This document shows, one piece after another, positions 247 to 43,018 of a stretch of 64,000 nucleotides of DNA. Origin of the DNA: Candidatus Hydrogenedentota bacterium. GTDB lineage: Bacteria; Hydrogenedentota; Hydrogenedentia; Hydrogenedentales; CAILVY01. Each line of letters starts with the position of its first letter. The first letter of the stretch is position 1. The notes beneath the pieces were generated by a model. That model did not search any database. It was given only the letters and a program-made list of their open reading frames with translations, and was not told the DNA's origin. The stretch is taken from assembly GCA_029565395.1 (NCBI GenBank), contig JAKQOG010000048.1:206-64205 (forward strand), given 5' to 3'. The translations under genes and the position numbers were made by a program.

Positions 247-3200
247 ATGAGTAAAATAGAGGTTAAGCAGAGGATGACGTGGTGGGTTTTGGGATTGGTA
301 ATGTGTTCCGTTATGGCCTGTGCCGCCAATGGGGAAATGGCGGCCGGCGCTTCGAAAACGCCGGTTGAAAATCCCGCCATTTTGGTATATGTGGGCCTAT
401 GCACCGGCGGGCAGGACTATGCCAACGAAGCCCTTGCCAACCTTGGCTATGCCAATGTCACCACGGTCACCACTTTGGCTGATTTTCAAACACAGTTGGC
501 CTTCTCGTGGAATCTGATTATTTATGACGGATACTACTCCTTTCTGAATACCACCATCCTCGATATGCTCAAAACAAAGTATGATTCAGGCGGCCGCATC
601 ATTTTTTCCGATGCGAATGTTCTTGCGCTGAAGGCGCATTCGTTGTTTTCCGCCGCCGGTGTCTCCATTATCAACGAATTCACCGTTCCGGAACCCCTTT
701 ACCCCTGGCAAAACGATCCCCTGTTCATTACCCCCAACGAAGTGCCGCCCATCACGGTCCTGAGCGATTTGTGCAACCGTGACGGCGTGCATCTGGAACC
801 TGTTGCCGGGCTGTCTACCGCACACGCTGGCGCCACCGAAACGGCCGAAACCAACAAGGCCCTGTTAACCGTGGATGCGAAACGCCATTTTATCTTTAAT
901 GGATTCGCTCCACAAACCGTCACGGGCGATCAGGATAGCGACAGCAAGCCTGACATGGTTGAATTATATGAAAATGAAATTCATCACTTGCTTGCGGGCG
1001 GCAACGGCGCGCTGGTCTTTTTTTCAACGTGTAACGGCGGCTTGGACTACTTTTCGGATGCATTGGATATGGCTGGCTTGAGCAACCGCACCGTTGTGTA
1101 TAATCAAGATGATTTTCTTGATCAATTGAATACGGGCAACTGGCGGTTGGTGATTGTGGATGCCTACGACATGAGCATAGACTCCACAGCGCTGGATGCA
1201 TTGGTCCGTCATTACAATAGCGGCGGGAAGACAATCCTGTATACGTGGAATCTGTTGAGTCTTGCTGCACATCCCTTCTTTACTCTCGCCGGCGCCAATC
1301 CCCTGTCCAACTATTCCACCCCGCAACCCATCTATGACTGGGATGTCTCGAATCTTTTCAAACAGCCGTGGACCATTCCTGATCTCACTGCGCTGAGCGA
1401 CCTGTGCCCTATCGATGGCCAGTATCTTCAAGCTACCACGGGCATTGCGCTCGCCGGCAACACCCCAACGTATGACGCCACTAAAGCCACCATTGTCATG
1501 GATGCCCACCGCCGGATATTGCTGAACGGATTCGCTCCCCAGAATGTTACCAGTAACCTTACGGGGTACAACGACATGACGGCCCTGTATGAAAACGAGA
1601 TCAACCTGTTGCTCTGGGGTGGACGCGGCACCCTGGTGTATATCGAGGCATGCGGGGGAAGCCCGGACTATATCTCCCCCGCCCTGGCCAATCTTGGTAT
1701 TACGGACGTTACTAGAGCCTCCGATGCGCTTGATTTCACCCTCCAACTTGCATCGGGCACCTGGGATACGGTCATTTATGAGGCCTACCGCATCGACACC
1801 ACCACGGAAACTCTGGACGCATTGCTGAACTTTTTTGATAAGAACCAGGGAAGTCTCGTCATCTCTCTATTTGACCTGAAAGCATTTGCCAGTCATCCTC
1901 TCTTTTCGGACCGTGCCGGGATCACCGTGGGTAGCGAGTACGGCGATCCACAGCCCATCTATGCCTGGAATCAATCCATCCTGTTTCAGGCGCCCAATGA
2001 GGTCCCTACTCTCAGCGCTTTCTCGAACCCCTGCGCGACGGACGGACAATTTATGGAAGTGACCACCGCCACCGCCCATGCGGGTTATACGGCAGATCCT
2101 TCAGCGAACAACACCGCCATTGCCGTTAACCAGAGCAAGCGGCTGATCGTCAATGGATTTATCCCAGGAATTGTGACAGGAGACGCCGATGGGGACTTAA
2201 AAGACGACATGGTTGAGCTCTACGAAAATGAAATTCTCTATAGCCGGGCAGGAACCAAGGTGGGGACCCTAGTGCTTTTCAACGATTGTTTTTTCGGACA
2301 AAATTATGTGGAACCGGCAGCCGCTAATCTTGGGTTGTCGAGAACGATCATAAGCAACGAAACATGGTTTCGAACCTATCTTGCCGCAGGGGATTGGGGT
2401 ACGGTCATTTATGATTCCTACAGCGCTTTCTTTCCGAATGGCCTTGAACAGGATCTGACGGCATATTACGATCAGGGTGGACGCATCATCCTGTCCGCGT
2501 GGGACCTTACCTCTTATGGAGGATACCCCATTTTGGACCGAGCAGGCATTTCGGTGGGATCCCAGTATAACACCCCTGAGCCTATCTATGCCTGGGACGT
2601 ATCGCCATTTTTCGATACCCCCAACCTAATCCCTAATCTGACCATTTTCAGTGATTTATGCGATGTTGACGGCCAGTATCTGCAACCCGGTACGGCATCC
2701 GCGGTCGCCGGCTTCACCGCTTCCCCTCAGGCAGACACCGCCGCCATTACCATGGACGCCCAATCCCGTTTTATCGTGAACGGTTTCATGCCCCAGAATG
2801 TTACCGGCGATGAAGACGGCGATACCAAGCTGGATATGGTTGAACTGTATGAAAATGAACTTAATGCCGTGCAGATGGCAACAGCAGAACGTTCCTGCCC
2901 CGCGGAATCCTTCTTCTCGCAAATACCGTATGCTCCCCCTGAAGCAATGGGTGCATGGTTTAGCGATGTGGATCTCCCCTATACGGTGTATGAAAACTTT
3001 AATGGCCTTACGGATCCCATCGGACAGATCGTGTGGTGGGGGCTCAATTGTTATTGTGACGCCATACCCGCGACGGACACCTTTTCTGTTGGATTTTACG
3101 AGGACAATGCGGGACTGCCCGGGAACCTGATTTACGAAGAAACCGTGACCCCCATACGGGAAAAGGTTGATGTGATGTATTATGTCTGGTGGCTATATCA

Positions 3201-3684
3201 ATATACCGTCACTTTAGCGGCGCCCCAATCAATCGACTCCGGCTGGCTCAAGATACGCGTTATAAATAGCAGCAAGTGCACGTGGGGATGGATGAGCAGC
3301 GGCCAGGGCGATCATTTCGCCTACCAGGAGGGTAGCGGACCCTTGAATAATCTGGATTTCGGCGTCTGTTTCATTGGCGCCAGTGCAAGCGGTATCCACA
3401 GCGCCGACACCAACAGCGATTATATCATCGGCCTCTCGGAACTTCTCCGCGTTATCCAGTTTTTCAACTCCAATGGATTCCATTGCCAGGCTGGCACCGA
3501 AGACGGTTTCGCGCCGGGTCCCGGCGATACAAGCTGTGCTCCCTATGACAGCGACTATAACCCAACCGATTGGCAGATAAGCCTTTCGGAATTGCTCCGG
3601 GTGATCCAGTTCTTCAATTCCGGCGGATATCATTACTGCCCCGGCGATGGTACGGAAGACGGGTATTGCCCCGGTCAAGGCTGA
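247..3684 (+). CDS. Giant secreted repeat protein 1 (1145 aa): signal peptide, 4 tandem ~210-aa repeats, one WWG/FYEDNAG-type domain, C-terminal dockerin/EF-hand-like Cys module
   Basis: RBS GGGAGAGG lies before the ATG. The N-terminus MSKIEVKQRMTWWVLGLVMCSVMACAANG is signal-like. Four repeats start near aa 54, 264, 470 and 684 (GGxDY...ALANLGY...DMVELYENE). The last ~90 aa are DTNSDYIIGLSELLRVIQFFNS...GTEDGYCPGQG. Confidence 0.85.
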   Translation: MSKIEVKQRMTWWVLGLVMCSVMACAANGEMAAGASKTPVENPAILVYVGLCTGGQDYANEALANLGYANVTTVTTLADFQTQLAFSWNLIIYDGYYSFLNTTILDMLKTKYDSGGRIIFSDANVLALKAHSLFSAAGVSIINEFTVPEPLYPWQNDPLFITPNEVPPITVLSDLCNRDGVHLEPVAGLSTAHAGATETAETNKALLTVDAKRHFIFNGFAPQTVTGDQDSDSKPDMVELYENEIHHLLAGGNGALVFFSTCNGGLDYFSDALDMAGLSNRTVVYNQDDFLDQLNTGNWRLVIVDAYDMSIDSTALDALVRHYNSGGKTILYTWNLLSLAAHPFFTLAGANPLSNYSTPQPIYDWDVSNLFKQPWTIPDLTALSDLCPIDGQYLQATTGIALAGNTPTYDATKATIVMDAHRRILLNGFAPQNVTSNLTGYNDMTALYENEINLLLWGGRGTLVYIEACGGSPDYISPALANLGITDVTRASDALDFTLQLASGTWDTVIYEAYRIDTTTETLDALLNFFDKNQGSLVISLFDLKAFASHPLFSDRAGITVGSEYGDPQPIYAWNQSILFQAPNEVPTLSAFSNPCATDGQFMEVTTATAHAGYTADPSANNTAIAVNQSKRLIVNGFIPGIVTGDADGDLKDDMVELYENEILYSRAGTKVGTLVLFNDCFFGQNYVEPAAANLGLSRTIISNETWFRTYLAAGDWGTVIYDSYSAFFPNGLEQDLTAYYDQGGRIILSAWDLTSYGGYPILDRAGISVGSQYNTPEPIYAWDVSPFFDTPNLIPNLTIFSDLCDVDGQYLQPGTASAVAGFTASPQADTAAITMDAQSRFIVNGFMPQNVTGDEDGDTKLDMVELYENELNAVQMATAERSCPAESFFSQIPYAPPEAMGAWFSDVDLPYTVYENFNGLTDPIGQIVWWGLNCYCDAIPATDTFSVGFYEDNAGLPGNLIYEETVTPIREKVDVMYYVWWLYQYTVTLAAPQSIDSGWLKIRVINSSKCTWGWMSSGQGDHFAYQEGSGPLNNLDFGVCFIGASASGIHSADTNSDYIIGLSELLRVIQFFNSNGFHCQAGTEDGFAPGPGDTSCAPYDSDYNPTDWQISLSELLRVIQFFNSGGYHYCPGDGTEDGYCPGQG

Positions 3685-3710
3685 TCGCAAAAGAAACAGT
3701 ATACACCCGC

Positions 3711-3745
3711 GCGCGGCTAGCAAAAGAGGCTTGCCGCGCTTTTTC
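3711..3745 (+). terminator. Rho-independent terminator after giant ORF 1
   Basis: Stem GCGCGGC (3711-3717), loop, stem GCCGCGC (3733-3739), then TTTTT. Confidence 0.55.
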
Positions 3746-3791
3746 TATGATTGCTTCTGTGTTTCTTTTATTATTGCTCTTTATTTTTGCT

Positions 3792-3819
3792 TTGCTTGTA
3801 TACATGCATAGTGTATACT
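3792..3819 (+). promoter_or_regulatory. Candidate sigma70 promoter for giant ORF 2, overlapped by a GTATAC-ATGCAT-GTATAC palindromic array
   Basis: TTGCTT at 3792-3797, a 16-nt spacer, TATACT at 3814-3819. The spacer and -10 contain GTATAC ATGCAT AGT GTATAC (3798-3818). Confidence 0.3.
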
Positions 3820-3881
3820 TATGATTAAGTATAGGTGTGAAAAGAAACGTAGAGGGAACCCAACCTGAAGGAGGGAGCATC

Positions 3882-6800
3882 ATGCTGTATATAAGACGCA
3901 CGGGACATTTTCCACATCAATCAACGTTAATCGCACGGGTTCTGTTAGGAATAGCTCTTATTCCCATTCTAGGCGGTCAAGCACCCGCACAAATCAACGC
4001 TCTTGCGCTTAAAGATGATGCGCGAACAAAAGTTACCCTGTGCACGGTAACGATCAATTTCGATGATGTATCTGCGCCCACGTTATTCATGAATGCAACG
4101 CATCTTACGGACGCATACAGTCAAATGTATGGAGTAACGTTTTATGGCCCAGACGGGGATAACGGCGGCGCCATTTTAGATAGCAGCACTTGGGCGTCGG
4201 TCACAGGCGAAAGCACCCCGAATTTTCTAGCCTTTGACACCCTGGGAGATCTTTCGGATGGCGGTGTAGCCATAGGGCCAGAAACGATTGAATTCCGAAG
4301 TCCCGTGGATGGTGTCAGCGTAAATGTGGCTACGGGGACGGGAGGCCATGCCACCCTCGAAGCCCGTGACCCGTATGGAACGGTTCTGGACAGTCAAACC
4401 GTATCATTGGGTTTCGCGATGCAAACGGTCACGATTATGTCGCCAGGAATTAAGTCATTAGTAGCGTCCTTTGACGACTCGACATTTCTAATGGATGATC
4501 TGTGCATTTACGGCGATCCTAACGGTGAGTCCTGTGCTGATGATTCGTTCTTTAGTCAAAAACCTATGAGTCCGTGGGAATCATGGAATGGATTTCCAAG
4601 CAATGTTGGGGGGAATAGTCTCTTGTATGAGAATTTCTCCGGATTGACCGAACCAATACAACGTATTCGTTGGTGGGGATTTGGAGTTGCCCCCGGCTTT
4701 TTCAACTGCACGCCCACGGGGAGTTCGTTTGAAATTGGGTTGTATTATGATGACGGGGGCGCGCCCGGAGCTCAATGTTACTCAGAGACCGTGACGGCGG
4801 CAATGTACGAGACGGGCCGGATATTTGCAGGAGTAGATAACTTTACGGAATACAGGTTCGAGGCAGACCTTGCAAATCCGTCCTACTTTTCCAATGGCTG
4901 GATTATGATTAAAGGCCTGGGAGATTTCTCCACATGCGGTTTTTATTGGCTGTTATCGCCAGAGGGCGATAACGTTTCCTCGCTGTCCACGGATGAAGGG
5001 GCCACCTTTAGCCCACAGACGATGAATTTCTCTATTTGCCTGAGCCCCGGCCCTGGCTACCGGCAGGAATGTGGAACGGGTTCTGCCTTTTCACAACGGC
5101 CCTTTGTTCCAAATTCTGTTTCTGAGTTTGGAAATTATTTCTTCAGCAGCGAAGCGCTGGGCTACACTGCCTATGAGAATTTTTCAGGGCTTAGCTGGCC
5201 TGCCAAGCACATTACCTGGTGGGGCATTGACTACTCCACTTCCTATAGTCCTTGTTCACGCACGATGGGTGATTTTACCATTTCCGTATACAACGACAAT
5301 GCCGGCGCTCCGGGTTCACTGGCGCTTGAGGAAACACTCACGCCTGTCCGCATGGATACAGGCAGGCAATGGTTCGACGGGACAAATTATTATCCTGAAT
5401 ACCGCTATGAAGCTGAATTGACCGGGCAGATTGACCTGGCGGATGGGTGGATTTCGATTTTTGGCAGCAATGAAGATGGGACATGCGGTTTTGCCTGGGC
5501 TGTCTCGCCGGTGGGGGACGATCTGATTTACCAAGCAATGAATGGTGAAACTCCCGCCAGTAAGCCAGGTTTTGACTTGAGCATTTGCCTGGACACCTAT
5601 ACGGGACCGCCACAGTATTGCATGGATGGTTCGCAGTTTAATCAAAAGCCCTATGGTCCTCTGGACCCTGGAGTCAACGCATGGTATAGCGGAGACGAGA
5701 CCGGATATATTGTGTATGACAATTTTTCCTCGCACTGGCCAATAAATTCCCTTCAATGGTGGGGAGCGGCCAGCGGACCGGCTTGCACCTCGTTTCAAAT
5801 TACATTTTATGAGGATAATGCCGGGCAACCAGGGATTGTGACATATCAGGAGAATGTGGTGGCGACACAAGAGCCAACGACTCGTTTATTTTTTGGAGGG
5901 CCTGAGTACAGGTTCTTCGCCACGCTTAGTTCTTCGGTAGCATTGGCCAGCGGCTGGATCTCCATCGCGGGGATAAACGGAGCCGGGTGTGGCTTTGGAT
6001 GGATTTGCTCTCCGAATGGGGATGACATTTCATTTAGTCAAACCCCGCCTGGCAGCGGTCCCTTCGTTAACCTCAACGTGGATCTGGCGTTGTGTCTGGG
6101 CGCGGATACGGGACCTGCGGAAACGTGCTCACCGTATGCACTGTTCGGCCAGCCGAGCATGGACCCCACTGCCTTGGGAGTGAACGCTCTCTTCAGCGAC
6201 GAAATATTGACCTATGCCGCCTATGAGAATTTTTCGGGAATCACGGATTCGATTACCGATGTCCGCTGGTGGGGCGTTCATTTCAATTACGCACCTTGTA
6301 CGCGCGTGACAGATACGTACCAAATAACATTTTATGAGGATAATGCAGGGCAACCGGGCGCTGTAGTGGAACAGGCGGTGATTACGCCGGACCGGACATT
6401 GACAGGCCGGATATTCTATTTTTCGGCGGACTATCCGGAATATTTGTGCCATGTGCGGCTAAGTACACCGGTGTCCCTTGCCACGGGCTGGATCTCCATT
6501 GTGGGCGTAGGGGATGCATCGTGTGGATTTGCATGGATGTGTTCAAGCGTGGGCGATTCTTTCTGCCTTCAATACCCCATCGCCGGCGGATCCCCCTTGA
6601 CTGGATACAGTGATCTCAGTCTATGTCTAAGCCATGAAGAAGAATTGTGCCAAGTCGTCCTCGATGGATCACAAGAAGCGCCACCCATTGGCAGCGCTGC
6701 CACTGGTATGGCAACATTTGCACACGTTGGCCCAGATGCAGTGCAGTTGACAGTAGTCCATGATGTGGCAGATCCTACCGCTGCACATATACACAGTGGC

Positions 6801-38614: not shown

Positions 38615-38821
38615 ATGCACTGTTTGGAGAATAAGAATACCGTGATTGAGAAAGTAGTGAGAAAAGGCAATTTGCGGGACTGGGATGAGGTTGCCCGGAA
38701 TCTTGAATACTGGCTGTCGCGCCGCCCCTTGGAACGTGTTGAGGCGGTCGAAATACTGCGGAGACAACGGGATGGAAGTGCAGCCCGACTTCAGAGAATT
38801 ACTCGCATTGTTCAACGCTAA
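38615..38821 (+). CDS. Small hypothetical ORF (68 aa) overlapping the start of the NTase-fold gene
   Basis: It overlaps the next gene by ~50 nt in another frame and has no recognisable family. It may be spurious, or the partner of a TA-like pair. Confidence 0.2.
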   Translation: MHCLENKNTVIEKVVRKGNLRDWDEVARNLEYWLSRRPLERVEAVEILRRQRDGSAARLQRITRIVQR

Positions 38822-39221
38822 TAATGTGGCCTGCCTCGTTGTCGGGGCGCACGCATTGGCATATCATGGCGTCCCGCGCTATACGGGCGACTTGGATATT
38901 CTGGTCCAACCTAATCCTGAAAATGCAATACGTATCGTGCGTGCACTAGGCCAGTTTGGCTTTGGTTCACTAGGATTAACTCAAGAGGATTTTGCCGAAC
39001 CTGACAAGGTTGTCCAGTTGGGGTGTGCGCCTGTACGAATCGACATCCTCACCTCACTCACCGGCGTAACGTGGGAGGAATGCATGGCCGGCTGTTGTGC
39101 AGATAACTACGGTGAGGTGCCGGTTAATTATCTCGGCAAACGGGAATTGATTCTGAACAAGCGCGCCCTTGGCCGCGCAAAGGATTTAGCCGACATTGAA
39201 GCGCTCGAAGGTATAGTGTGA
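38772..39221 (+). CDS. Minimal nucleotidyltransferase-fold protein (HGxPRxTxDLD family)
   Basis: The start is moved to the ATG at 38772; the ORF track starts at 38685. MEVQPDFRELLALFNANNVACLVVGAHALAYHGVPRYTGDLDILV carries the hG...R..GD.D pol-beta-type NTase signature. Confidence 0.5.
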   Translation: MEVQPDFRELLALFNANNVACLVVGAHALAYHGVPRYTGDLDILVQPNPENAIRIVRALGQFGFGSLGLTQEDFAEPDKVVQLGCAPVRIDILTSLTGVTWEECMAGCCADNYGEVPVNYLGKRELILNKRALGRAKDLADIEALEGIV

Positions 39222-39290: not shown

Positions 39291-40268
39291 TTAAGATATC
39301 GTGTATGTAAATGTCCCCTCCCGCACCGTCTTGTTCACGTTTCCCTTCGCCTCAAGATGCCGCAAATGCGCGCCTGCTTCCCCCACGGCGAACCATTTTT
39401 GCATCATCGGGAAGTGGTCCCAGGAGGGGGCGGCGAAATCCCATGTCATGCGTGTTGCGGTTTCGTATGCCGTACGGGCTCCTTCCTGTAGAATTTTCAC
39501 TACTTCGTCCTCACGCTCCTGATGATGATCCTTCAGTTCCCGGATGCGTCCTTGGAAATCGGTGAAGGTGCGGCGGTGTCCGGGGAGAACCAGGGCGACG
39601 TCCAGGCCATATACCTTGTCCAAGCTGGCCAAATATGTTCCCAGCGTATCCGTATCATCGGCCGTCGTGGAGATGTTCGGCGTGATATCCCCCAGCACAT
39701 GATCCCCCGATATAAGTATCCGGTGATTCGTTTCATATAGACACAAGTGACCGGGACTGTGCCCTGGCGTGTGTACGCACCTGAATTGGTAGTCGCCCGC
39801 ATTAAGAACATCGCCATCCCTCAGGATGGTGAATTCCGGGTATTTCGGGGGACTGTTCCGGATGCCGGGGTGTTGTTTCATGGCGTCCGTCAGCCCTTCT
39901 TCCGGGAATCCGCAGGCACGCCCGAATTTGATCAAGCGGGCGAGAAAGGTTTCGACATTGAATGTGTGCACCCATTGTGCCTCCGGCGCATTAAAATACA
40001 CGCGGGAACCTTCCGAGGCCAGCGCCGTCACCAGGCCCAGGTGATCCGCGTGAAAATGCGTAATGAAGAAATCCGTTCGCGCCCGATCGATATCCAGTTC
40101 CTTAAACCCCGCCTCCAGCGCATTCTGGCACGCCGGCTGATTCATCCCCGTATCCACCACCAGCGTGCGCTCTCCCGACCGCACGACGTACGCGTTAATA
40201 TTCCGCAGCGGATTCCGTGGCAGTGGAACCTCAATCCGGAACACGTTCGGAAGCACCGTCTCGATCAT
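39291..40268 (-). CDS. MBL-fold metallo-hydrolase
   Basis: It carries the metal-binding motif HFHADH, plus VVDTGM and later GH motifs. The start is probably MIETVLPNVFRIEVPLP at 40268; the alternative ATG is at 40322. Confidence 0.7.
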   Translation of the reverse strand: MIETVLPNVFRIEVPLPRNPLRNINAYVVRSGERTLVVDTGMNQPACQNALEAGFKELDIDRARTDFFITHFHADHLGLVTALASEGSRVYFNAPEAQWVHTFNVETFLARLIKFGRACGFPEEGLTDAMKQHPGIRNSPPKYPEFTILRDGDVLNAGDYQFRCVHTPGHSPGHLCLYETNHRILISGDHVLGDITPNISTTADDTDTLGTYLASLDKVYGLDVALVLPGHRRTFTDFQGRIRELKDHHQEREDEVVKILQEGARTAYETATRMTWDFAAPSWDHFPMMQKWFAVGEAGAHLRHLEAKGNVNKTVREGTFTYTIS

Positions 40269-40588
40269 AATGCCGAAAATCCTTTCGTCGGAAACGTTAG
40301 AAAAATAGTAACACTCTGTCAAACAGTTTTTGGGGTGAAACTATACCGAATCCGTGCAGATCGGTGTAATTTCATCTTTACCATCAACTTGGGGATGACT
40401 CAAAAAGTTATCCCGGCACTTACTGACAGACGGAATACAAGGTAATAATAGCATGTCACGTTCGCGTCACCATCATTTCCGCGAAAGGGGCTTTCTAAAA
40501 ATAGAATGATGTCCTTCTTTCGGCCCTTTGGGACTACTTTGGCGAAGATATCCACGGCCCAGGGCATCGCTACGCTTGCCCTGGGCCG

Positions 40589-40771
40589 ATGACCGCTCCG
40601 AAAAGACTATCGCGAACGAACTTCGCAAAAAACGCCGCTCCGGACGATTTTGATCTCATCATCGCCGCTACTGCCCTGGTAATGGGCTACCGCCTTGTCA
40701 CCAACAACGAACGCCATTTCACCTCTATCCCCGGTCTCGAAATCGAAAACTGGACCCGAATGCCCCACTGA
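40589..40771 (+). pseudogene. Remnant of a PIN-domain (VapC-like) toxin gene, C-terminal third only
   Basis: DFDLIIAATALVMGYRLVTNNERHFTSIPGLEIENW matches the C-terminal conserved block of VapC. An in-frame stop lies 87 nt upstream and there is no N-terminal PIN half in any frame. Confidence 0.5.
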
Positions 40772-40878
40772 CCCCATTAATTGGATTAATTGGAATTCAG
40801 TTGCAAAGCACCCCAATTCTTGTATAGGCTGTTACTGTACTGGAGGATGGATAGTCCATCATCTAAGGGAGAGCAAAC

Positions 40879-41064
40879 ATGCCTAAGAAAAAAGCCATAT
40901 ACAGTAACACCCAGTCTATCCGTCAACTGGGCGAGGCCTTTGCTGGCATGGCAAACGGCAAAGTCTCCATCCCGCAACGGGATTGCCCCGATGTTCCCAA
41001 ATTCATTCAGCAACTGCAGTCCGCACAAGCGGCTACACGCAAACATACTATAAAGTTTGGCTGA
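40879..41064 (+). CDS. Small hypothetical protein (61 aa), first gene of a two-gene low-GC cassette
   Basis: It has a strong AAGGGAGAG RBS and ends 21 nt before the next ATG. No family is recognised. Confidence 0.35.
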   Translation: MPKKKAIYSNTQSIRQLGEAFAGMANGKVSIPQRDCPDVPKFIQQLQSAQAATRKHTIKFG

Positions 41065-41085
41065 TATGGATAAAGGGGATGAGGT

Positions 41086-42627
41086 ATGTGCTTAGGGCGT
41101 TTGGGACAATCTATTGACATCAATCTTGTTGACATTCGTCAACCTTTCTCGAATTTCCTTTTTGTGGATACGCTCCTGCCCAATGGGGATTACGGGGCCG
41201 TCCGCCGCCTGTTTTCTTTGGCTCGGAGGGGCGATGGAAAAACTCTGATACTCGAAGATATTGAGGCAGTTGGCGCGGTGGCTGATGAGATCGTTGAACT
41301 CTCCACCCTGTTTCCCGGATATCACTGTGATGGGGTGAAGCGGCTTACATTTTGGAAACAATCCTGTACTTCCACACAGGGTATTGAGCATCTTTCGGAT
41401 GAAGATCTTTTGGGCTATGCCATTATCAAACAAGATGTAGTTTCTGACAGACCGCCAGTATGGCATATTTTCGAGTCTGTATTTAGAAAATATCCACACG
41501 AACATAATTGTGTTCCAGGCGAAGCGCCATTCATGGTGCGCAGCGGAAACCGGATTTTCACTGTTAATGGTGTTATGTATTGTCAGCAGAACGGACTGAA
41601 CAAGGCATGTGCCCAAGTTGCCCTCCGAAGCTTGCTCAGCCGCATTCTATTAAATGAAGACCTCCCTTATAGCATAATGAATCAAATCGCGGGGGAAAAT
41701 AATCCTGGATTCAATCCGGCTGAAGGTCTTGATACGAATCAAATTCGTTGCATCCTCGATCACTATAAAATCCTGTATGATGATTTTGACTATATGGCGG
41801 ATAATACAGCGGCTATCCCGTATTCCCGGATCCTGTATGCCGGAATAGAGAATAGCTTGGGCGGTTTGTTGGGGTTTGAACTTTCCGGCGCTGGAGCGCA
41901 TGGAGAAAAACACATCATTCCCTTTTATGGACACACATTCAATCAAGATACATGGGTGCCACGGGCAGGTCTGGCTTACTTCCATGTTGGTGAAAACACG
42001 CGATACATCTCCAGCGAAGAATGGTTGAGCAGCTTCATCGGCCACGACGATAATTTCGGTAGTAACTACTGCGTGCCGCGAAAATTTCTCGAATACGGCC
42101 AAGTGAAATACGTTGTGGCGTTGCGTCCGCCCAATACGGAATATGGCGCGATAGAAGCGGAAGCAATTGCAGTCGATTGTCTTTATTCCACAATCCACTT
42201 CTTGCGCCCTCATGACAACTACTGGATAAGACGTCTCATTCACCACATCGGGGAGCAGGATGTGGTCCTGCGCACCTTGTGCCTGAATCGGAACCAATAT
42301 GTCGGACACCTTCGGGAATGCAGGGATTGGACAAGCAATTCGGAAGCAGAGGCAATTTTGGATCGCTTCGTTAAAGTATTGCCGGAACATCTATGGATGG
42401 TGGAGATTTCCATTCCCGAACTATTCTCTGCCAACTATCGAAAACTTGGCGAACTCGTTCTCGATGCGCGCGTGTCTCTGGTTCCTTATCCGCCGGATGA
42501 GCCCCTATGGGTGATTGCCCGCTTCCCAGGAACGTATCTGATAAATCAATCCCCAACAACCTCATCCACATCTTTCTTGATACTGCCAAGTGCCTTGGAA
42601 AGCCATACTCCCCTCTATCGCGGTTAA
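41086..42627 (+). CDS. Hypothetical 513-aa protein in low-GC islet; possible papain-like (C39-like) cysteine peptidase fold
   Basis: The RBS is GGGGATGAGG. GC is roughly 48 % against ~60 % for the neighbours. CQQNGLNKACAQVALRSLL resembles the Q-x(6-8)-C-[GA]-x-A-x-[LV] catalytic-Cys context. A candidate His segment is HIIPFYGH. Confidence 0.5.
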   Translation: MCLGRLGQSIDINLVDIRQPFSNFLFVDTLLPNGDYGAVRRLFSLARRGDGKTLILEDIEAVGAVADEIVELSTLFPGYHCDGVKRLTFWKQSCTSTQGIEHLSDEDLLGYAIIKQDVVSDRPPVWHIFESVFRKYPHEHNCVPGEAPFMVRSGNRIFTVNGVMYCQQNGLNKACAQVALRSLLSRILLNEDLPYSIMNQIAGENNPGFNPAEGLDTNQIRCILDHYKILYDDFDYMADNTAAIPYSRILYAGIENSLGGLLGFELSGAGAHGEKHIIPFYGHTFNQDTWVPRAGLAYFHVGENTRYISSEEWLSSFIGHDDNFGSNYCVPRKFLEYGQVKYVVALRPPNTEYGAIEAEAIAVDCLYSTIHFLRPHDNYWIRRLIHHIGEQDVVLRTLCLNRNQYVGHLRECRDWTSNSEAEAILDRFVKVLPEHLWMVEISIPELFSANYRKLGELVLDARVSLVPYPPDEPLWVIARFPGTYLINQSPTTSSTSFLILPSALESHTPLYRG

Positions 42628-43018
42628 TAATAAAAATTTGATCTCTGAACATACTCACATGATTACAATATACGCCCTAAACTACCTATACACCTTCACA
42701 GCCTAAGTCATCTCCGCATCCTTCAACTTTCAGCCACTATGAATTGCATCTATTCCTGCTGAAAATAACGAATGAAGTTTCACCACTCTCTTACTTCTAG
42801 TAATAATACTATTCCAAATCCACAAAAAAACAAAAGAATTTGCCACAGGATGATTGGCAAATTAATTTTAATGAAAAGACGATCACAGCAGACATATTCT
42901 CAAACCGTCTTTTTGTGTGCTATCCTCATTACATTCTTTTCTAGCGGCTTCGCCACGTTGTAATCTTTGTGGTTGATGCGGTTAAATGTCATCACGTACG
43001 ACATAGGAACTTTGCAGC

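Follow-up and report, generated by a model that had tools for sequence, protein, structure and literature searches.

An intact two-gene cassette encoding a predicted papain-like cysteine peptidase and a small partner protein in a low-GC patch of a Hydrogenedentota genome

Introduction

Whether a low-GC patch in a bacterial genome holds the debris of lost addiction modules or a system that is still intact is the question raised by positions 40400-43018 of a 64,000-nt stretch of DNA (the window) from a Candidatus Hydrogenedentota bacterium (contig JAKQOG010000048.1 of assembly GCA_029565395.1). A first-pass annotation of the window described this segment as an islet with a fragment of a VapC toxin gene, a tandem repeat, two open reading frames (ORFs) for proteins of 61 and 513 amino acids (aa) and an AT-rich tail, and read it as horizontally acquired, possibly degraded defence or addiction DNA. 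The foreign composition and the presence of toxin-antitoxin (TA) debris, in the form of the VapC remnant, were borne out, whereas the degradation of the two-gene cassette itself was not: both genes are full length, all invariant residues are kept and the pair is the conserved unit of its family. Accordingly, the object of interest is the intact cassette and not the debris, since it consists of full-length genes of a large, unnamed and mobile two-gene family. The larger product is predicted to contain a papain-like cysteine peptidase domain, and the cassette is a credible candidate for a new protease-based TA or defence module.

An intact operon conserved as a pair

The cassette is located on the forward strand and comprises a small gene (40879-41064; a basic protein of 61 aa, recognised by homologous ORFs, selection and an AlphaFold2 (AF2) model) and, behind a 21-nt spacer, a large gene (41086-42627; a three-domain protein of 513 aa, recognised by homologues, an AF2 model and Foldseek comparisons). 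Both ORFs had been called at these positions before and were confirmed, as were the strong ribosome-binding sites ascribed to them. Read from the sequence, a Shine-Dalgarno-like AAGGGAGAG occupies 40865-40873 on the forward strand, 5 nt before the small-gene ATG, and a second Shine-Dalgarno-like sequence, AAGGGGA..GAGG, is found on the same strand in the spacer before the large gene (41073-41084). Together, the 61-aa and 513-aa genes are an intact two-gene operon.

This coupling is a feature of the whole family. In each of the first six genomic contexts examined, the large gene was immediately preceded by an ORF of 57-67 aa, which gene callers had missed in two of them. A hidden Markov model (HMM) built from 17 upstream ORFs matched directly upstream and on the same strand in 72 of the 80 fetched loci. 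The eight loci without such a match comprise four contigs ending at the start of the large gene, three that are among the most divergent members and one locus with reversed order, a Lentisphaeria contig (L054) in which the small ORF (2213-2395) is located downstream of the large gene (526-2103) and none was seen upstream. In nearly every locus with a called pair, the gap between the small-gene stop and the large-gene start does not exceed 40 nt, or the genes overlap by 1 nt. Moreover, both proteins have co-evolved, the distances among the small and among the large proteins of 58 unique pairs being correlated with a Mantel r of 0.81, a value reached by none of 2000 permutations. Such a conserved pair of neighbouring genes, read in the same direction and either overlapping or separated by a short spacer, is the arrangement known from type II TA systems.

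Some further features of the operon sequence may be recorded here. The small and the large gene share the same reading frame and are separated by three in-frame stop codons within 21 nt (TGA at 41062, TAA at 41071 and TGA at 41080), and the first codons of the large gene contain an imperfect 15-bp tandem repeat, CAATCTTATTGACAT in two copies with 86% matches (41107-41135).

A large protein family without a name

The first-pass annotation had recognised no family for the 513-aa protein, and indeed neither this protein nor the 61-aa protein found a match in Pfam, NCBIfam, PADLOC or PHROGs. The 513-aa protein has over 630 homologues, about 520 aa long and 44-71% identical, all of them labelled hypothetical. 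A profile search of 1.84 billion representative sequences returned 1,426 clusters at E <=1e-3 and 575 at E <=1e-30, the resulting family size of about 1,400 being a number of clusters at 50% identity. Pfam models applied to 30 members of the large family gave no match even at E <=10, the defence models of PADLOC-DB v2.0 gave none to either protein at E <=1, and searches of PDB sequences with the full profile as well as with a profile of the protease domain only gave none at E <=10. Likewise, the curated sequence models of C39, C39_2, C47, C70 and BtrH_N did not match the family. In the literature, no description of a papain-like TA or defence pair was found, nor one under the Desulfurivibrio locus tags. 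As far as sequence comparison reaches, the 513-aa family is new, and its nearest solved structures are beyond the reach of sequence profiles.

Within the family, conservation is high. An alignment of 30 diverse members contains about 75 invariant positions, all of which are kept in the protein of this window. The protein (pI about 6) features neither a signal peptide nor a transmembrane segment and is thus considered cytoplasmic. It was found on seven contigs from different samples, and in the four that were compared the region is 100% identical, representing the same genome. Members from Opitutales and Puniceicoccales (L072, L074-L076; P0135, P0150, P0154, P0155, P0159) are longer, with 614-637 aa, and carry an insertion of about 100 aa between the N-terminal domain and the protease domain.

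Predicted fold and candidate catalytic residues

The AF2 model of the 513-aa protein, built on the alignment of 30 sequences, reached a pLDDT of 83.8 and a pTM of 0.84 and consists of an alpha/beta N-terminal domain (about aa 1-140), a central domain (about aa 145-346) and an alpha/beta C-terminal domain (about aa 350-513). Foldseek comparison with the PDB placed the staphopains A, B and C on top (E 2e-3, probability 1.0, target-normalised TM 0.56-0.59). Further matches included the 'CD lyase' 22oc, a Josephin-type deubiquitinase, the C39 peptidase domains of PCAT1 and ComA, the C39-like domain of HlyB, GtgE, the phytochelatin-synthase-like Alr0975 (2bu3), IdeS and SpvD, and in the viral library BFVD, papain-like and AvrRpt2-like proteins ranked first. 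Staphopain, C39, C70, BtrH_N, phytochelatin synthase and GtgE have been grouped as 'Cluster I' of papain-like proteins (PMC10318531). Judged by the model and its structural neighbours, the central domain is a predicted papain-like cysteine-peptidase fold.

The invariant residues of this domain are arranged accordingly. The motif YCQQNGLNKAC provides Gln167 and Gln168 as putative oxyanion residues and Cys175 as putative nucleophile (codons at 41584-41610, forward strand). All three are invariant in the 30 diverse homologues, the glutamines stand 7-8 residues before Cys175, and the cysteine itself (TGT codon at 41608-41610) is the first residue of a modelled helix (175-184). Gly282 and His283 of the motif GHTFNxD (41929-41934, forward strand) follow at the end of a strand (275-284), where His283, invariant in the 30 members, is the presumed general base. 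The next ordered strand (316-321) carries GHDDNFG (Gly319-Gly325; 42040-42060, forward strand), a motif that is invariant in the same members including H320-D321-D322-N323 and offers Asp321, Asp322 or Asn323 as candidate third catalytic residue. This layout resembles that of a Gln/Cys/His/Asp(Asn) thiol peptidase, and from it we infer the triad assignment and a probable peptidase chemistry. A loop of aa 286-314 (41941-42027) is almost invariant across phyla, with N286, D288, W290, A294, Y298, F299, G302, Y307, S310 and W313 as conserved positions, and was modelled with a pLDDT below 50; this loop may become ordered only on binding of a partner or substrate.

The small partner protein

The small protein belongs to a family of its own, with 107 database homologues of 48-96 aa, most of them 57-63 aa, that bear no Pfam tag and occur in no domain fusions. 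Between related small ORFs, pN values of 0.11-0.29 stand against pS values of 0.52-0.91, and the far lower pN demonstrates that the ORF is a real gene under purifying selection. The proteins are basic (median pI 9.9, net charge +6) and share the pattern [YF]-x-S-P-x-I-A ... F-G ... V-x-V-x-M ... D-V-x-x-F-I-x-K ... A-x-K-K ... h-x-F-x. Pfam recognised no domain in 50 of them, and no ribbon-helix-helix (RHH), helix-turn-helix (HTH), AbrB or Phd-type domain was detected; likewise, no conserved palindrome or inverted repeat was found upstream of the small gene in 12 loci. One homologue (P0352) is named from a metagenome-assembled genome of Promethearchaeota, i.e., an Asgard archaeon, which hints at a transfer beyond Bacteria.

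Modelled alone, the 61-aa protein obtained a pLDDT of 71 and a pTM of 0.31, with two helices (11-22 and 38-55) joined by extended segments, and a fold search with this model gave no structural match, as expected for such a pTM. The isolated protein is thereby predicted to have no compact fold, as would be expected for a protein that folds on its partner. An interpretation as a ubiquitin-like protein, suggested by the glycine at the end of many of the small proteins, was rejected, as the C-terminal position differs between members (G, K, R, D, A, S or P) and the model is helical instead of showing a beta-grasp.

Distribution and mobility of the cassette

With one genome per species, 73 loci were counted in 185,579 species genomes, and these are scattered over more than a dozen phyla. 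Hosts belong to Hydrogenedentota, Verrucomicrobiota, Kiritimatiellia, Lentisphaerota, Planctomycetota, Omnitrophota, Desulfobacterota, Desulforudis, Chloroflexota, Fibrobacterota, Calditrichota, Nitrospirota and gammaproteobacterial sulfur oxidizers. The neighbours change at almost every locus, and a third gene is conserved nowhere. Such a patchy, horizontally mobile distribution in variable contexts is a second trait shared with type II TA systems. Besides, the AT content of the cassette exceeds that of its flanks in 56 of 60 loci, with a mean difference of 7.4 percentage points of GC, and the difference of 6.6 points in this window equals the family median. Low GC is therefore a property of the cassette family and not of this particular genome. 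The cassette is horizontally acquired and a member of a horizontally spread family.

Several of the variable sites are of interest in themselves. A tRNA gene is present within about 1 kb in eight of 60 loci. In a Kiritimatiellia/Verrucomicrobiota locus, the pair is inserted between hsdS and hipBA-hsdR of a type I restriction-modification (R-M) operon, and in four further lineages (L024, L025, L028 and L067) it adjoins type I R-M genes or an R-M-linked YgjP-like gene. Altogether, 5 of 74 unique loci have type I R-M genes or the YgjP-like companion next to the pair, which is above a chance expectation of less than 1%, a rough estimate and not a computed background. ATPases of the AAA_21/AriA-like type are neighbours in about five further loci, and in this window the pair stands beside a VapC remnant and a TA-like pair of nucleotidyltransferase (NTase) type. 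Additionally, one locus (L010) contains a second, truncated copy of the small-protein ORF (2772-2933) downstream of the cassette, in a region (2772-4860) where this copy abuts an AAA_21 ATPase and a 219-aa partner on the opposite strand, a defence-like pair.

Composition of the islet and its neighbourhood

The low-GC segment described in the first-pass annotation was recovered by windowed GC analysis. The GC content of 40400-43018 amounts to 0.466 in comparison to a mean of 0.543 (sd 0.022) for the 64-kb window, which ranks fourth lowest among 614 overlapping windows of 2619 bp. The minimum of 0.465 begins at 40301 and thus marks the same patch, so that the segment is in effect the lowest 2.6 kb of the window. 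The GC content at third codon positions (GC3) is 0.486 in the 513-aa gene and 0.532 in the 61-aa gene, below the 0.65-0.67 of topA, the metallo-beta-lactamase (MBL) gene and the CBM9 gene, and in combination with the windowed GC this supports a compositionally foreign segment. An islet of the same composition and an assigned housekeeping function in all relatives, which would have refuted the first-pass reading, was not encountered; the contexts of the cassette differ between genomes, and the relatives of the CBM9 gene have no neighbour in common with this window. Lying between topA and the CBM9 gene, the islet amounts to a small stretch of accessory DNA.

Upstream of the cassette, an ORF of 60 aa (40589-40771, forward strand) had been interpreted as a fragment with only the C-terminus of a PIN/VapC protein, and the profile coverage in NCBIfam and Pfam agrees with this. 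The NCBIfam VapC model NF047863 was matched with an E-value of 9e-10 at positions 93-130 of 130 and the Pfam PIN model at positions 89-117 of 120; across tRNA(fMet)-specific VapC models, just the final 38-48 positions are covered (84/93 to 130/132). The likeness to VapBC systems is confined to these 38-48 C-terminal residues, whereas the N-terminal two thirds of the PIN domain and vapB are missing, so that neither a complete PIN domain with its N-terminal acidic residues nor an adjacent vapB was found for this non-functional ORF. HMM scans detected no VapC signal in the other two frames upstream of 40589, and no vapB ORF precedes it. A full-length VapC pseudogene disrupted by frameshift was rejected, since the scans of three frames back the C-terminal piece alone. 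The fragment, with a host-like GC3 of 0.62, is a dead leftover of an earlier vapBC locus. An inverted repeat with perfectly matching arms of 12 bp (CGGCCCAGGGCA / TGCCCTGGGCCG, 10-nt loop, 40555-40588) ends one base before the ATG of the remnant. Behind the remnant, between its stop codon and the promoter region of the cassette, the previously noticed tandem repeat is real but tiny, consisting of 2.1 copies of the 9-bp unit ATTAATTGG at 40776-40794 (Tandem Repeats Finder score 38); no role was found for it, and no equivalent motif is present upstream of other cassettes.

Downstream of the cassette, a non-coding spacer of 391 bp (42628-43018) extends to the CBM9 gene. It had been described as a very AT-rich tail of about 390 bp without ORFs. 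Its GC content of 0.368 makes it the lowest-GC 391-bp stretch of the window, the lowest windows of this length in the 64 kb (GC 0.371; mean 0.543, sd 0.038) beginning at 42601 and 42651, and it holds just two short ORFs, both of them unsupported. Neither an Rfam family nor a tRNA was found in the tail or the islet, and the matches of promoter and terminator scans remained at chance level. About 150 bp 5' of the CBM9 gene, an inverted repeat (AAAAGAATTTGCCA / TGGCAAATTAATTT, 42832-42868) with the core palindrome TTGCCA-N9-TGGCAA may represent a regulator site. Across the other loci, the spacer 3' of the cassette ranges from a few bp to about 700 bp, and because of this wide variation the AT-rich tail is not regarded as a conserved part of the module. 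It is probably an ordinary, if extreme, intergenic spacer carrying the promoter of the CBM9 gene.

Further upstream, a 68-aa ORF overlaps the start of a 149-aa gene (38615-39221, forward strand) between topA and the MBL gene. The former resembles DUF6922 with an E-value of 7e-4, below the cutoff, and the latter weakly matches AbiEii and NTP_transf_5 profiles with E-values of 0.03-0.1. More than 2298 homologues of the 149-aa protein with about 70% identity are distributed across Thermodesulfobacteriota, Nitrospirota and Zixibacteria, one cluster of them being tagged DUF2204 and DUF6036. Of the two upstream genes named in the first-pass annotation, the MBL hydrolase was verified (Pfam E 1.9e-22), while the NTase call is weakly supported by the direct profile matches, with the tagged cluster as an additional indication. 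The DUF6922-like ORF and the NTase-like gene probably form another mobile TA-like pair within this patch. Owing to the VapC remnant and this probable pair, the region of 38.4-43.0 kb makes a small accumulation site for addiction-type modules, which supports the general idea of horizontally acquired DNA put forward earlier. The MBL-fold hydrolase itself (39291-40322, reverse strand) carries a 'faint' precomputed tag, Anti-Pycsar_Apyc1, and has a host-like GC content of 0.554.

No terminal direct or inverted repeats marking the ends of a mobile element were found around the cassette, and an empty-site test, in which metagenome contigs were scanned with the flanking CBM9 protein of 1019 aa, retrieved 51 loci whose proteins reach at most about 58% identity along the entire length, and none of these loci has a neighbour in common with this window. 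Insertion boundaries are for this reason not definable.

Comparison with known systems

The closest precedent is the staphopain-staphostatin pair of Staphylococcus (C47; PDB 1pxv and 1y4h), which is the best structural match of the central domain and likewise combines, in one operon, the gene of a papain-like cysteine peptidase with the gene of a small dedicated protein. Staphopains are secreted pro-enzymes of about 390 aa, and the staphostatin gene, located downstream, encodes a beta-barrel protein of about 105-110 aa. In contrast, the 513-aa enzyme is predicted to be cytoplasmic, possesses two extra domains and has no detectable sequence similarity to staphopain, while its 61-aa partner is predicted to be helical or extended and is encoded upstream. 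By Foldseek, the protein falls into the same fold group as the Cluster I families C39, C39_2, C70, BtrH_N and phytochelatin synthase and follows their motif logic, with a glutamine 6-8 residues before a helix-opening cysteine and a Gly-His on a strand. It differs from them in having no sequence match in Pfam, NCBIfam or the PDB, no fusion to an ABC transporter, about 140 additional N-terminal and about 165 additional C-terminal residues, and an invariant 30-residue loop.

The genetics of the pair resemble those of type II TA systems, in which a larger gene is closely linked to a small gene preceding it and both are inherited as a unit. Moreover, like such systems, the cassette is patchy across phyla, AT-richer than its host and located at variable sites, including the one between hsdS and hsdR beside hipBA; PrrC, like hipBA, is among the modules embedded in type I R-M operons. 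Nevertheless, the putative toxin is, with 513 aa and three domains, far larger than classical toxins, and the small protein features neither RHH, HTH, AbrB nor Phd-type domain, and no operator palindrome was found upstream of its gene in 12 loci. To our knowledge, no recognised type II toxin family has the predicted thiol-peptidase activity.

Possible function and rival explanations

In bacteria, papain-like proteases that could endanger the cell producing them are known to be accompanied by small dedicated inhibitors, as is staphopain by staphostatin. This precedent, together with the TA-like genetics and the papain-like, cytoplasmic nature of the enzyme, is the reason to propose that the pair is a TA or abortive-infection-type module in which the small protein keeps a cytoplasmic thiol protease in check, a reading to which we assign an even chance. 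The central domain would act as a thiol peptidase, with Gln167 or Gln168 forming the oxyanion hole, Cys175 as nucleophile, His283 as base and an Asp or Asn of the GHDDNFG strand as third residue, flanked by two family-specific domains. The 61-aa protein would bind the 513-aa protein and block its active site or lock it in an inactive state, either in an antitoxin-like manner or by acting in trans as an inhibitor or pro-peptide. If the small protein were lost or displaced, be it under stress, on phage infection or because the locus is lost, the peptidase would be freed and could then cleave a conserved protein of the cell or the invader, so that toxicity would take the form of growth arrest. 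More specifically, and only tentatively, the family might be a new TA or abortive-infection class in which a papain-like effector, silenced in trans by a pro-peptide-like protein of about 60 residues, cuts a universally conserved cellular or phage protein; it would then form a protease-based addiction or immunity module spread horizontally through over a dozen phyla of bacteria that are mostly uncultured.

Several observations weigh against such a role in addiction or defence. For a defence gene, the large protein is unusually well conserved, with 44-50% identity across phyla and its many (about 75) invariant positions, most loci have housekeeping neighbours while recognised defence genes occur in only about 7-15% of them, and the family is absent from the viral contigs of IMG/VR, the phages of INPHARED and the plasmids of PLSDB. 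The small protein carries no recognisable DNA-binding antitoxin domain, and a conserved palindromic operator upstream of its gene is likewise missing in 12 loci. With regard to the enzyme, the third catalytic residue is a set of candidates (Asp321, Asp322 and Asn323) next to a likewise invariant His320, the invariant loop 286-314 was modelled with low confidence, and deamidase, acyltransferase and transglutaminase reactions are likewise carried out by proteins of papain fold.

The genetic part of these observations, namely the full-length conservation across phyla, the mostly housekeeping neighbours, the small protein without an antitoxin-type DNA-binding domain and the lack of copies on the searched plasmids and phages, would suit a regulated, housekeeping-type proteolysis, in which the protease is accompanied by a chaperone, adaptor or activator and serves accessory physiology such as stress-dependent processing instead of TA or defence. 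The family is, however, rare and patchy (73 of 185,579 species genomes), its context differs at almost every locus, the cassette is consistently AT-richer than its flanks, and insertion in type I R-M operons and beside TA genes has occurred repeatedly, which leaves this explanation as the less probable one, at roughly one chance among several. Slightly further back stands a non-proteolytic chemistry, i.e., a deamidase, transglutaminase or acyl- or peptidyl-transferase of the BtrH, phytochelatin synthase or Cif/OspI type acting on a protein or small molecule. The Foldseek matches to the acyl-enzyme 2bu3, the 'CD lyase' 22oc and a papain-fold toxin of glutamine-deamidase type speak in favour of it, as does the failure of all sequence models of true peptidases. 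We consider it unlikely, since true peptidases provide the best and most consistent matches (staphopains with probability 1.0, C39, GtgE and AvrRpt2-like proteins) and since the peptidase group is the one with these Gln-x6/7-Cys and Gly-His motifs (PMC10318531). If it applied, the biochemistry would change, and the logic of the system with its small partner and mobile pair may stay the same.

Instead of an inhibitor, the small protein could be the substrate of the enzyme, a precursor matured by a C39-like peptidase into a peptide signal, bacteriocin or product resembling ribosomally synthesized and post-translationally modified peptides (RiPPs). C39-type peptidases act on small precursor peptides from neighbouring genes, the structural matches include PCAT1 and ComA, and the unstructured state of the small protein in its isolated model as well as its conserved C-terminus (hydrophobic-x-Phe-x) would agree with a precursor. 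Nevertheless, neither a conserved transporter, modification enzyme nor immunity gene is located nearby, the small protein has no double-glycine leader and no core rich in Cys, Ser or Thr, its conservation spans all of the approximately 60 residues, and export signals are missing in both proteins; maturation of a precursor is hence improbable. The decay of the whole islet, cassette included, to functionless remains of defence or addiction genes is true for the VapC piece, which is indeed degraded, and the low GC and AT-rich non-coding tail would fit it. For the cassette it is highly improbable, because both genes are intact and of family-typical length, the large protein retains every invariant residue, both genes have strong ribosome-binding sites, the small-ORF family is under purifying selection, and no differences exist in the region between the four compared contigs, out of seven from different samples that carry the protein. 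The proposal of a thiol protease restrained by its small partner is therefore retained as the preferred reading of the pair.

Significance

If this proposal is true, a protease effector and a new kind of small regulator would be added to the repertoire of TA and phage-defence systems. The family, with its approximately 1,400 clusters, is outside the coverage of Pfam, NCBIfam, PADLOC and PHROGs, and the cassette offers a minimal system of two genes and 2 kb for asking by what means a papain-like protease is silenced in the cytoplasm, which signal sets it off and which protein it would target. Even in a conservative view, a predicted fold and candidate catalytic residues are now assigned to a large family of 'hypothetical proteins', and its partner of about 60 aa, often missed by gene callers, is a real gene.

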